From Clostridia bacterium (GTDB lineage: Bacteria; Bacillota; Clostridia; Oscillospirales; SIG627), in NCBI GenBank assembly GCA_017414535.1, contig JAFQMA010000021.1, forward strand, positions 1 through 53,100: a stretch of 53,100 nucleotides of DNA. Direction: 5' to 3'. A program made the position numbers and the translations under genes. The notes beneath the pieces are model-generated. The model was given only the letters and a program-made list of their open reading frames with translations. It was not told where the DNA came from and did not search any database. Position 1 is the first letter of the stretch. The number at the start of each line of letters is the position of its first letter. Below, in pieces: positions 1-53,100 of this stretch.

Positions 1-1431
1 AACGTGGGTGACAACGTCGGTGACGTTGCAGGCATGGGCGCCGACCTTTATGAATCCTACGTCGGATCTATTCTATCCGCCTCTGCGCTGGGCACCGTAG
101 CGTTCGAAAACAACATCTCTGCTTTGGCTCTTCCCTTCCTCTTGGCCGTTCTGGGCATCTTCTGCTCTGTCATCGGTACCTTCCTGGTAAAGACCAAGGA
201 GGGCGCAACTCAGAAGAATCTGCTCCGTGCCTTGAGCCGCGGTACAAACTTTTCTGCTATTTTGATTGCCGTACTGTCCTTCCCGCTGGTTTGGCTGGTT
301 CTGGGCAAGGAAAACCTCGTCTTCTTCGTACCGATCCTGGCTGGTCTGGTCAGCGGCGTTCTTATCGGCCAAGCAACGGAATACTTTACCTCCGATACGT
401 ATAAGCCCACCAAGAAGCTTGCATCTTCCTCTGAGACGGGATCCGCTACCTTGATCATCAGCGGCCTTTCCATCGGAATGCTTTCCACTGCACTTCCCGT
501 CCTGATCGTGGCGGTATGTATCATCGTATCCTTCTTCGCTACCGGTGGAATGGGAAATGCAAACCACGGCCTTTTCGGCATCGGCCTTGCCGCAGTCGGT
601 ATGCTTTCTACCTTGGGTATCACCCTTGCAACCGACGCATACGGTCCTGTTGCTGATAACGCAGGCGGTATTGCACAGATGGCCGGCCTTGAGGAAAGCG
701 TCCGTGAGCGCACCGATGCACTGGACTCCCTCGGCAATACCACTGCTGCTACCGGTAAGGGCTTTGCCATCGGCTCCGCCGCTCTGACTGCGCTGGCTCT
801 GCTGGCAAGCTACATTGATCAGGTAAAATCCATGGGTGCCGAGGCCGCAGAGGCGATCTCGAATCTTAGCCTCATCAATCCCACCGTTCTCGTCGGTCTC
901 TTCATCGGCGCCTGCGTTCCCTTCGTATTTGCAGCACTGACCATGGAATCTGTGGGCAGAGCAGCTCAGAGTGTCGTACAGGAGGCAAGAAGACAGTTCC
1001 GTGAGATCACCGGTCTTCTGGACGGAAAAGCCGATGCAGACTATGCAAGATGCGTTGACCTGTGCACGCGCTCCAGCTTGAAGGAAATGATCCTACCCGC
1101 CGTTTTGGCTATCGTCGCTCCCGTCGTTACGGGTCTTGTGCTTGGCGTAACGGGCGTCGTAGGTCTTTTGGCAGGCGCTACCGCTACGGGCTTCCTTTTG
1201 GCCATCTTTATGTCCAACTCCGGCGGCTCCTGGGATAACGCAAAAAAATACATTGAGGGCGGTAATTTCGGCGGCAAGGGCTCCGATCAGCACAAAGCTG
1301 CCGTTGTGGGCGATACCGTAGGCGATCCCTTTAAGGATACCGCAGGTCCTGCCATCAACATTCTCATCAAGCTTCTTTCCACCGTCTCCATCATCTTTGC
1401 TGCCATCGTAGCAAACTACAGCATTTTCTAA
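1..1431 (+). CDS. hppA: Membrane-integral pyrophosphatase, K+-dependent, probably Na+-translocating (5' truncated by window edge)
   Basis: Motifs DNVGDVAGMGADLYESY, DAYGPVADNAGGIA, LDSLGNTTAATGKGFAIGSAA, GDTVGDPFKDT; many TM helices. GNTTAA (Ala, not Lys) marks the K+-dependent class. Confidence 0.95.
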   Translation, partial: NVGDNVGDVAGMGADLYESYVGSILSASALGTVAFENNISALALPFLLAVLGIFCSVIGTFLVKTKEGATQKNLLRALSRGTNFSAILIAVLSFPLVWLVLGKENLVFFVPILAGLVSGVLIGQATEYFTSDTYKPTKKLASSSETGSATLIISGLSIGMLSTALPVLIVAVCIIVSFFATGGMGNANHGLFGIGLAAVGMLSTLGITLATDAYGPVADNAGGIAQMAGLEESVRERTDALDSLGNTTAATGKGFAIGSAALTALALLASYIDQVKSMGAEAAEAISNLSLINPTVLVGLFIGACVPFVFAALTMESVGRAAQSVVQEARRQFREITGLLDGKADADYARCVDLCTRSSLKEMILPAVLAIVAPVVTGLVLGVTGVVGLLAGATATGFLLAIFMSNSGGSWDNAKKYIEGGNFGGKGSDQHKAAVVGDTVGDPFKDTAGPAINILIKLLSTVSIIFAAIVANYSIF

Positions 1432-51670: not shown

Positions 51671-52093
51671 ATGGATGCACGGGCATTAAACGAGGCCATT
51701 GGACAAGGGATCCGCAAGGTATACTATCCCGATCGCATCGAGCTATACCTTCCCTTCTTCATTGGGAACGAAAAAAGCGAGGAGTTTTGTCTTGCTTTTG
51801 ATCGGGACGGCGTGCTCAGCGACGGTGGCAGAACGCTGGAAGAATTGAAAAAGCGAGTAGGCGATCTTACCCCTTACCGCGAGACCATTCGGAACATTCT
51901 GGATCATTTCGGTACGGTGGCGCTGGAGGGCGGCCAAAAGCTGGTGGTTCGCAGCTTTCAGACCTGTTCTTTCGGCGATAAGGAATACCTTGACTATGCG
52001 GGAGGCCTGAGCCGAATGATCCGCGTGATCGCCCTGATCTGTGCGGCAGATCGCATTAAAGTGGATGAAGATGGGGTGGTGAGCTTATGCTGA
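51671..52093 (+). CDS. Hypothetical protein, DUF1828-like
   Basis: LPF...LSDGGRTL..L...IRNILDHFG pattern recalls DUF1828; SD GAGG. Confidence 0.6.
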   Translation: MDARALNEAIGQGIRKVYYPDRIELYLPFFIGNEKSEEFCLAFDRDGVLSDGGRTLEELKKRVGDLTPYRETIRNILDHFGTVALEGGQKLVVRSFQTCSFGDKEYLDYAGGLSRMIRVIALICAADRIKVDEDGVVSLC

Positions 52094-52455
52094 AGGAGAT
52101 CCGAGAGCAATTAGATACCATGTTTTGTGCCTACGAGGACAGAGGCGCGCTTGACGTTTGGACGCATATGACCATAGAGGGCGATCCTATCAATTTCCGT
52201 TTTTATCAAGAGGACAACAAATACGCCCGCCTTGTGACCCCACCCTGCTTTTCGGAATGGATGGCCTACAGCACCGGCTGTTGGTCAAGGGCGGCATCCA
52301 CCATTGAAGCCCTGGCCGAGCCTTACGGCGTTTCATGGGACAATGAGAACGGGGCGCTGTATATCCGCTTTCGACGCAACGAGATGAGCGTTGCCGAAGC
52401 GATCATGCGTCTGCAACAGGCCGTTTCCCTTGTGTGCGAATTGGGGCCTTTTTAA
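52087..52455 (+). CDS. Hypothetical protein, divergent DUF1828-like paralog
   Basis: GDPINF.., LAEPYGV.W..ENGAL, AIMRLQQAV; overlaps the upstream gene by 7 nt. Confidence 0.5.
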   Translation: MLKEIREQLDTMFCAYEDRGALDVWTHMTIEGDPINFRFYQEDNKYARLVTPPCFSEWMAYSTGCWSRAASTIEALAEPYGVSWDNENGALYIRFRRNEMSVAEAIMRLQQAVSLVCELGPF

Positions 52456-52469
52456 AAAGCGATCTATAG

Positions 52470-52507
52470 AAAAACCGATCTGCCGGGATTTCGGCAGATC
52501 GGTTTTT
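52470..52507. terminator. Bidirectional intrinsic terminator
   Basis: AAAAACCGATCTGCCG-ggattt-CGGCAGATCGGTTTTT. Confidence 0.88.
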
Positions 52508-52630
52508 GTTGCAAAAGTTCTTTGATAGCGGCCTGTGGTCAGTACGCAAAAGAGGGAAATTAAAAGTCGAGTTACCGTGGCGAGGTCGCAACTTAATCGT
52601 CCTCTATTTGCCTCCACGTTCTCCTCGACT
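52470..52630 (-). ncRNA. Candidate orphan structured small RNA (~160 nt)
   Basis: Own promoter TTGAAA-17 nt-TATAAT (52665-52637), nested 5' hairpin, CU-rich linker, terminator; no credible ORF. Confidence 0.6.
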
Positions 52631-52668
52631 AAACTTATTATATTCTACATATAAAAATTTTTCAATAG

Positions 52669-52700
52669 AAATCCCTCTGCCGATTTATCAGCAGAGGGAT
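52669..52700 (-). terminator. ppdK terminator
   Basis: Minus strand ATCCCTCTGCTGA-taaa-TCGGCAGAGGGAT followed by TTCT. Confidence 0.72.
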
Positions 52701-52721
52701 AGTTTTACTTTATAAATCTAA

Positions 52722-53100
52722 TTACTTAGATTCTTTGATAGCAGCCTGAGCGGCGGCGAGGCGTGCGATCGGCACGCGGTAGGGAGAGCAGGAAACGTAG
52801 TCCAGACCGATCTTGTGGCAGAACTCGATGGAGGAGGGATCGCCACCGTGCTCACCGCAGATACCGCAGTGGAGGGTGGGACGAGCCTTCTTACCCATGG
52901 TAACGGCCATATCCATCAGCTTACCAACGCCGGTGGTATCCAAACGAGCAAAGGGATCGGACTCGTAGATCTTGTTGGCGTAGTAGGAGGGCAGGAACTT
53001 GCCTGCGTCGTCACGGGAGAAGCCGAAGGTCATCTGGGTCAGGTCATTGGTACCGAAGCAGAAGAATTCAGCCTCTTCAGCGATCTGATCAGCGGTGAGG
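52722..53100 (-). CDS. ppdK: Pyruvate phosphate dikinase, C-terminal part (5' truncated by window edge)
   Basis: [48 protein letters not shown]. Confidence 0.95.

Follow-up and report, generated by a model that had tools for sequence, protein, structure and literature searches.

A hairpin-bearing unit behind ppdK in a Clostridia bacterium as a probable mini-cassette of a family of recombination-site-bounded gene arrays

Elements of the staphylococcal cassette chromosome (SCC and SCCmec) form composite islands at the 3' end of rlmH (orfX), where they are moved by the Ccr large serine recombinases (LSRs), and pseudo-SCC elements without ccr also exist. Integrons combine the tyrosine recombinase IntI and an attI site with attC-bounded cassettes, most of which have no promoter of their own and depend on the common promoter Pc. 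Mobilisable elements of the Tn4451/Tn4453 type carry the LSR TnpX together with TnpV; to our knowledge, Tn4451 neither targets ppdK nor gives rise to arrays of cassettes that lack a recombinase. Here we describe a locus that shares traits with each of these systems: the 3' end of ppdK, the gene for pyruvate, phosphate dikinase, in a Clostridia bacterium (assembly GCA_017414535.1), where ppdK is followed on the minus strand by a promoter and a nested 66-nt hairpin. The window is the whole stretch of DNA that was analysed, 53,100 nucleotides of contig JAFQMA010000021.1. In Bacteroidota, PvCTn-like conjugative transposons use these very ppdK codons as attB and restore the stop within 2-3 residues; these are large conjugative elements of another phylum, one per site, and the passages on them describe no cassette arrays (PMC11005914). 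In the full-text literature we found no description of arrays such as those reported below, and only this use of the ppdK site by conjugative transposons of Bacteroidota.

We propose that the stretch 52748-52520 on the minus strand is probably a 213-bp mini-cassette of an array at the ppdK 3' end, recombinase-less, served by an LSR in trans, and with the hairpin as a stuffer. That cassettes form arrays at this site is well supported. The locus is laid out as follows, in the direction of ppdK.

52722-53100, minus strand: 3' end of ppdK, an open-ended open reading frame (ORF) truncated by the contig end.
52733-52748, minus strand: left core CAGGCTGCTATCAAAG, an attL-like joint at which the ppdK codons QAAIK are followed by the cassette head.
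52715-52732, minus strand: small stem-loop AATCTAA-GTAA-TTAGATT with the ppdK stop codon in its loop, belonging to the cassette head.
52671-52700, minus strand: GC-rich terminator hairpin of the cassette head, 13 pairs followed by a T-run in the terminator scan.
52637-52665, minus strand: cassette promoter TTGAAA-17-TATAAT, matching the consensus at 11 of 12 positions.
52565-52630, minus strand: nested 66-nt hairpin, starting at the predicted transcription start and followed by UUUAAUUU.
52546-52562, minus strand: CU-rich run within the element-side arm.
52536-52562, minus strand: element-side arm, TAATTTCCCTCTTTTGC plus GTACTGACCA, whose consensus shows two-fold symmetry to the other arm.
52520-52535, minus strand: right core CAGGCCGCTATCAAAG, the cassette end.
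52470-52507, usable on both strands: 16-bp terminator hairpin, from the fold, outside the cassette.
52087-52455, plus strand: convergent ORF of 122 aa, of no known family.
51671-52093: ORF of 140 aa, which together with the 122-aa ORF forms the chromosomal flank.

The ppdK fragment covers positions 745-865 of the 865 positions of TIGR01828 (E 6.6e-67, profile search), and its final three codons and stop (ESK*) come from the inserted cassette. The two cores, 52748-52733 and 52535-52520, are direct repeats shared with ppdK that match at 15 of 16 bases, and the slightly longer 18-mer at 52535-52518 agrees with the ppdK end at 52748-52731 in 17 of 18. As the sixth core base is T on the left and C on the right, a crossover to the left of that base is indicated, consistent with a centre at CA; in the left core the crossover is predicted at the dinucleotide CA at 52748-52747. 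Cassettes of other loci start with the same 16-mer as the left core. The inner arm GTACTGACCA equals the GTACTGCACCA variant, found in several other junctions, minus one base. Other junctions also have a hairpin at the position equivalent to 52671-52700, which in the window is predicted to terminate ppdK transcription.

These boundary pieces are not confined to the window. When the window's own genome was searched together with 60 relatives, the ppdK end with the first terminator recurred in the own genome (G000:C22:5296-5380, 90% identical), and the ppdK end with the cassette head recurred in other families at 82-93% identity; the CU-rich run with the 18-mer recurred as well, often abutting the ppdK-end piece directly. 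At the own-genome site the two boundary pieces flank a promoter and an ORF for a 135-aa membrane protein. What sets the window cassette apart is its content: it is the smallest of 80 distinct cassettes, and the 66-nt hairpin is its sole private sequence, in a cargo slot without a gene.

As to the second own-genome site itself, which does not lie beside ppdK, it holds a 549-bp cassette with the membrane-protein ORF (G000:C22:5302-5882; L003 1503-2068). Its cargo is 98% identical to that of the second cassette of L061 (JAZRGE010000104.1), and the arm upstream of it, TCCATCGCTCGATGTATAGCCCCA, resembles the type of arm found at LSR genes.

Across loci the arrays keep one order: ppdK and a first core are followed by repeated units of head, cargo, arm and core, with the arm TAATTTCCCTCTTTTGC-tGATAGCAcCA and the core consensus CAGGCyGCTATCAAAG. 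Most of the listed heads give ppdK an in-frame stop again after a few codons (ESK*, G*, DIK* and ELK* among others; judged by eye and uncounted). At least 135 stretches of public genome contigs match a strict junction pattern. Their hosts are Acutalibacteraceae, Oscillospiraceae, Faecousia, and metagenome-assembled genomes labelled Clostridia or Eubacteriales, many from ruminant guts. In an even sample across the order, 18 of 401 genomes and 8 of 30 families had the strict pattern, which misses variants such as those of the array-bearing genomes G029 and G002; a reversed-pattern control gave 0. Horizontal spread is suggested by a distribution that is patchy across families, combined with about 90% identity of the site between them.

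The 80 cassettes between cores range from 213 to 4715 bp, and in 76 of them the longest ORF runs in the direction of ppdK. A site of the form TTGNNN-16..18-TANNAT follows 107 of 215 cores, compared with 15.3 in shuffled sequences and 18 on the opposite strand. A stem of at least 5 bp around the stop codon is found in 110 of 158 junctions versus 47 with shuffled partners. Among 113 cargo ORFs of at least 75 aa, 72 have no Pfam family, and the remainder include ToxN, a TIR-TPR protein, YbjQ, DUF4234, ankyrin proteins, acyltransferases, transporters and regulators. Furthermore, three pairs of cassettes share cargo that is 94-99% identical while their neighbours are unrelated on both sides, and in these pairs the homology extends from just before the first core to the exact end of the 16-mer of the second.

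Two further observations concern the heads. The halves of the stop-codon stem co-vary across junction types (L056-L189), as AAAGCAA/TTGCT, ATATGAA/TTCATA and AATCTGA/TCAGATT; the stem might serve as an RNA 3' end, as a DNA hairpin or as a piece of the outer motif of the site. A non-coding stretch, GTATTTATGCGGGTTT...GCTGAAATACAGCTAC, stands right after the core and stop and before a terminator in L068 (~500-620), L063, L143 and L183; it had no Rfam match at E <=0.001 in L068 or L063.

The site itself has the symmetry of a recombination site. The consensus of 160 full junctions, aaTAATTTCCCTCTTTTGCtGATAGCAcCA-CA-GGCTGCTATCAAaGAATctAAGTAATTa, is complementary about CA at inner positions 2 and 4-11 and again at the outer positions 24-28 (TAATT/AATTA), forming a quasi-palindrome of about 58 bp, and the arm is present at cassette ends in 160 of 218 junction contexts. 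When ORFs of at least 150 aa around the arrays were clustered, ppdK appeared in 30 loci and the recurrent neighbour, in 13 loci, was a protein of 580-632 aa, which is an LSR, as it has Resolvase and Recombinase domains; its matches to the CcrB and CcrC models are weak (106 and 80 bits, where the cut-off is 900). Its association with the arrays rests on physical linkage: the LSR ORF ends within the core in L040, L082 and L090 and spans it in L131, and pieces of the LSR 3' coding end adjoin or span the core in eight further loci (L024, L034, L039, L156, L141, L161, L094 and L044). It is conceivable that the recombinase gene spans its own attP, and that integration may swap its C-terminal tail.

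Some details of these joints can be noted on their own. In L131 (1714-1905) the LSR ORF runs about 63 codons beyond the core. L039, L034, L024, L156, L141, L161 and L094 have pieces of the final 35-50 LSR codons immediately behind a core or extending across it, and the piece at L039 1376-1524 keeps the LSR reading frame through the core.

A larger element at the same site is seen in G049. Between 37000 and 70000 of its contig C21 there are exactly three cores: one at the ppdK end, a second 31.3 kb further on at the 3' end of the LSR gene, and a third after a single following cassette. The 31.3 kb between the ppdK core and the LSR core (G049:C21:37375-68662; L204, L205) carry genes for TnpV (PF14198), a NikA-like and a ParB-like protein, a cytosine methylase, pPIWI_RE restriction endonuclease and Z-domain proteins, and a HEPN protein. 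This stretch is a mobilisable island that has ppdK as its insertion site and ends in the LSR gene. In having the LSR at one end, TnpV and a NikA-like mobilisation protein, it is similar to the Tn4451/Tn4453-type elements.

How might such an array work? A cassette begins with the core CAGGCTGCTATCAAAG, and its head supplies a new in-frame ppdK stop, the small stem-loop, a terminator and a sigma-70-type promoter, with the cargo next; it ends with the arm, TAATTTCCCTCTTTTGC-(G)ATAGCACCA, and the next core. Adjacent cassettes thus meet in the quasi-palindrome of about 58 bp centred on CA, which looks like the attP of an LSR, with the ppdK joint resembling attL and the last joint attR. We infer that the LSRs of larger elements at the same site insert, and perhaps exchange, recombinase-less cassettes in trans, which would resemble the situation of ccr-less SCC at rlmH.

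It would also be conceivable that no site-specific recombinase is involved, and that duplications of the ppdK 3' end allow units to be shuffled by homologous recombination. The repeats, 40-130 bp long and highly similar, are enough for RecA-dependent exchange; moreover, heads look mosaic, and contigs from other samples that hold the hairpin unit cease to align near 52671. However, the unit boundaries are sharp at the 16-mer, the junction is two-fold symmetric with a left arm that is not ppdK sequence, core and LSR gene overlap in four loci, eight more have LSR fragments at a core, and the same site is found at 82-93% identity in different families. We consider this explanation quite improbable.

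With LSR-mediated cassette insertion as the preferred reading, the array shows similarities to SCC in several respects: insertion at the 3' end of a housekeeping gene with the reading frame kept, tandem stacking of elements with the site directly repeated between them, the coexistence of members with and without a recombinase, and a recombinase that is an LSR. It differs in that the units at ppdK are 0.2-4.7 kb long and mostly consist of one gene that brings a promoter and a terminator, whereas SCC islands measure 3-60 kb; the target is ppdK rather than rlmH, the hosts are gut Oscillospirales, and the LSR is no Ccr equivalog. The likeness to integrons lies in the ordered, same-orientation row of small, mostly single-gene cassettes at one site, and in a cargo that is mostly of unknown function (the 72 of 113 ORFs without Pfam family) and includes the defence genes ToxN and TIR. 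Unlike integrons, the recombinase linked to the site is a serine and not a tyrosine recombinase, the cassettes bring their own promoter and terminator instead of sharing a Pc (the promoter-like site was found in 107 of 215 heads), and the site is a double-strand-type quasi-palindrome of about 58 bp that copies the end of a host gene, not an attC. Among the 40 largest clusters of near-array ORFs (at least 150 aa, judged on their first residues), the LSR was the sole recognised recombinase, no search aimed at IntI having been made.

The initial annotation, made from the window sequence alone, had described the unit as an orphan RNA gene, with a promoter and terminator of its own and a CU-rich, anti-Shine-Dalgarno-like seed. 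Much of its description holds. The promoter TTGAAA-17-TATAAT lies at 52665-52637 as described; the minimum free energy fold of 52630-52565 is identical to the proposed nested hairpin that starts at the predicted transcription start, with the stems AGUCGAG/CUCGACU, CGUGG/CCACG and GAGG-a-CG/CG-a-CCUC; the CU-rich run, the ppdK-like 18-mer and the 16-bp terminator are all present in the sequence. The minus strand past the element has no downstream gene, as its only ORFs there are antisense to the 122-aa ORF. Belonging to no known RNA family, too, is borne out by a search of Rfam release 15 over 51900-53100 at E <=10, in which the matches were at chance level (the top one scored 26 bits, with the gathering score at 74), came from microRNA models lying on terminators, and in no case covered the hairpin.

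The interpretation of these parts is what changes. The element is bounded by recombination cores and is best described as a mobile cassette rather than an orphan gene. Promoter and terminator both exist, as judged by consensus and folding, but the former belongs to the standard cassette head and the latter lies outside the cassette. What was taken for a seed, TAATTTCCCTCTTTTGC, is a conserved arm on the element side of the recombination site; the 18-mer, taken as part of an RNA gene, is the core that bounds each cassette. Because the promoter comes from the head, the seed from the arm and the 18-mer from the core of a cassette family, they are not private to an RNA gene. The promoter scan found four promoter-like sites in 1.6 kb, whereas shuffles gave 1.6 on average (sd 1.4).

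There is thus little room for a separate chromosomal gene that would encode a trans-acting small RNA of about 160 nt with the CU-rich run as its single-stranded seed. The locus does share with bacterial trans-acting small RNAs a promoter, a 5' hairpin, a U-rich end and the lack of an ORF, and a real promoter, hairpin and terminator without a downstream gene or an Rfam family would fit one. It departs from them in that the unit is bounded by recombination sites and mobile, and in that the supposed seed is the arm of a DNA site. Seed and 18-mer are invariant parts of the junction that stand at the 3' end of unrelated cargo genes, none of 50 other family genomes contains the unit, and it has another downstream context elsewhere, so the terminator at 52470 is not part of it. 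Since the CU-rich stretch is common to the junctions of the family, we give a small RNA with a CU-rich seed low weight and regard it as very improbable.

The hairpin itself has no relatives that we could find. A BLAST search of 51 genomes of the family detected it only in the window's own; a covariance model of the hairpin, run over 150 relatives and the own genome, returned the own copy at 108 bits and one noise match at 21 bits, and over 0.9 Mb of array loci it returned nothing besides the own copy; two scans of JGI metagenomes with hairpin patterns gave 0 matches. The collection of homologues that the initial annotation had proposed as a basis for covariation was therefore carried out, and because the hairpin is without homologues no covariation test was possible. 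Regarding stability, the whole 171-nt stretch is more stable than all of 200 shuffles (z = -4.3), mostly due to the terminator, and the hairpin alone (a 74-nt piece, -21.4 kcal/mol) is only modestly so (z -2.2, with 7 of 300 shuffles as stable).

Two structural ideas about the hairpin were considered. A kink-turn or another named RNA motif was considered for the GAGAA/GUAA internal loop, which does not seem to fit a kink-turn with a 3-nt bulge. A miniature inverted-repeat transposable element, with a terminal inverted repeat and a TTT duplication, was rejected, there being no second copy in the genome.

Despite its absence from related genomes, the unit is met with in other samples. Besides the probable source and a sister sample, eight public runs from eight other studies contain 0.42 of the sampled words. 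In each of the three runs of other studies that were examined, contigs cover the arm, hairpin and promoter, from 52546 to 52667-52673, with at most 2 differences over about 125 nt; missing cover below 52546 in X3, X6 and X7 carries no evidential weight. In run X3 the same contig goes on to a canonical arm, a core and the head of another cassette, not to the tail of this genome, and because of this different downstream context the unit of promoter, hairpin and arm is a circulating module. Among these data, which are assembled contigs only, the sole contig from an RNA library (depth 2) spans 52547-52673 and, as it covers the promoter too, shows no start at 52630.

A few joints and variants in these runs were set aside. 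The X2 joint 52562->52720, seen in one contig with 23 letters on its shorter side, is probably the end of another cassette on the shared arm and was not used; the X6 joints to 52546/52543 could not be attributed to a hairpin-bearing contig and were not counted. One X2 contig (depth 5 of 11) lacks, at 52611, one G in the GG of the AGGCAAAUA bulge, with the stems intact.

If the cassette promoter is active, a short promoter-driven hairpin transcript is plausible: most likely an RNA of about 70 nt that would stop at the hairpin and the U-rich beginning of the arm, while transcripts that read through would end at 52470. On this account the hairpin would be a terminator-like stuffer of an otherwise empty cassette and not a trans-acting regulator.

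A small protein might also be imagined as the product, from a GTG ORF at 52617 (94 aa here and 25 aa in the context inferred from X3) or a TTG ORF at 52591. A GAGG stands 5 nt upstream of the GTG; the frame, however, crosses the recombination core and the 16-bp terminator and continues opposite the 122-aa gene in antisense, stems enclose the start region, the DNA is without homologues, and the two other hairpin-only cassettes described below have no comparable ORF or ribosome-binding site. We judge a coding role extremely improbable.

Several points weigh against our reading of the unit as a mobile cassette with a stuffer. The window's own genome (86% complete) yielded no LSR, and the cassette's mobility there is putative; neither excised circles nor an empty site were observed. 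The loci behind the junction consensus were gathered by pattern, so that conservation at the pattern positions is partly by construction, the outer motifs not being in the pattern. What follows the right core may be the remnant of a cassette head that has decayed, and not the native attB side. Moreover, the hairpin is no textbook terminator: its outer, basal stem of 7 bp is followed by UUUAAUUU but encloses a 52-nt insert with internal loops, and the terminator scan made no call.

Further points of this kind come from other small cassettes. Only three are shorter than 300 bp, those of the window (213 bp), L061 (235 bp) and G003 (258 bp), and all three lie directly behind ppdK (3 of 29 first-position cassettes versus 0 of 50 others, Fisher p = 0.046, which is weak as the genomes are related). 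Each has a near-consensus promoter followed, right at the predicted transcription start, by one or more hairpins, unrelated in sequence, that end in the U-rich start of the arm, and none shares an ORF or ribosome-binding site with the others. L061 and G003 fold into very stable structures (z -5.7 and -6.0), which none of 300 shuffles equalled. Hairpins of this kind are absent from ordinary cassettes, both from promoter to start codon and from stop codon to arm. Because gene decay does not predict this pattern, a functional RNA or a terminator-like cargo is possible.

It would be tempting to infer from this an RNA-only cassette, in which the hairpin RNA, whether regulatory, decoy or defence-related, is the selected cargo, made from the cassette promoter and spread by the cassette system. 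The common architecture of the three cassettes is in its favour, as are the near-identity of the unit in three other studies, in one of them in a different context, and the ability of family cassettes to carry RNA genes, for which ToxN with ToxI-like repeats in L101 is an example. On the other hand, the window hairpin has no homologue and hence no covariation, none of the three cassettes has an Rfam match, the hairpin is only modestly above shuffles, identity between samples reflects recent spread and not selection, and the single RNA-library contig, which includes the promoter, gives no start at 52630. We regard this explanation as possible but unlikely. A broader version, that the ppdK platform also spreads self-promoted, self-terminated RNA-only cassettes of about 70-100 nt with a preference for the first slot behind the highly expressed ppdK and a role in regulation or defence, seems to us similarly doubtful, and we continue to favour the cassette with a stuffer.

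Some observations on RNA elements in the arrays stand apart from this. In L101 the first cassette after ppdK (~830-1613) encodes ToxN (PF13958, E 1.6e-47), with tandem repeats of about 35 nt upstream that resemble a ToxI antitoxin RNA. A search of seven array loci, with the L061 and G003 cassettes among them, gave no Rfam match to these two at E <=0.001, and only Gut-1 in L021 and a tRNA in L068. Gut-1 as a sign that small-RNA genes cluster behind ppdK was rejected, as it is a dispersed multi-copy repeat. It (RF01706) occurs in 65 of 101 relatives, with 38 matches in the window's genome, often at contig ends; copies include G000:C22:12339-12415, C46:25485-25559 and L021 1645-1715, and one copy lies just behind ppdK in G009.

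The downstream side of the locus can be described briefly. The tail after the right core (52470-52519) offers no nearby stop for ppdK, which would run on for 22 codons through the terminator if this were the native end. An AGCAAAA-like stretch and the terminator in this tail resemble a cassette head without the stop-codon stem-loop. Because the hairpin at 52470-52507 also forms on the plus strand, it can end the convergent 122-aa ORF too. The array of L082 is followed downstream by ORFs of 122 and 167 aa, with N-termini visibly similar to that of the 122-aa ORF of the window (by eye, unaligned).

What might all this mean? One lesson is that the convincing look of a small-RNA gene can arise wholly from the boundary modules of a mobile cassette; hairpin-only cassettes may be empty shells or mobile RNA genes. 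If the proposed reading is true, compact natural attP/attB pairs and portable expression modules would be on offer. Each cassette would be a ready-made expression unit of terminator, promoter and gene, and strain-variable content at a ppdK hotspot in many uncultured bacteria of ruminant and human guts would be explained. Gut Clostridia would then own an integron-like platform for gene capture, built on an LSR and the end of a central metabolic gene.

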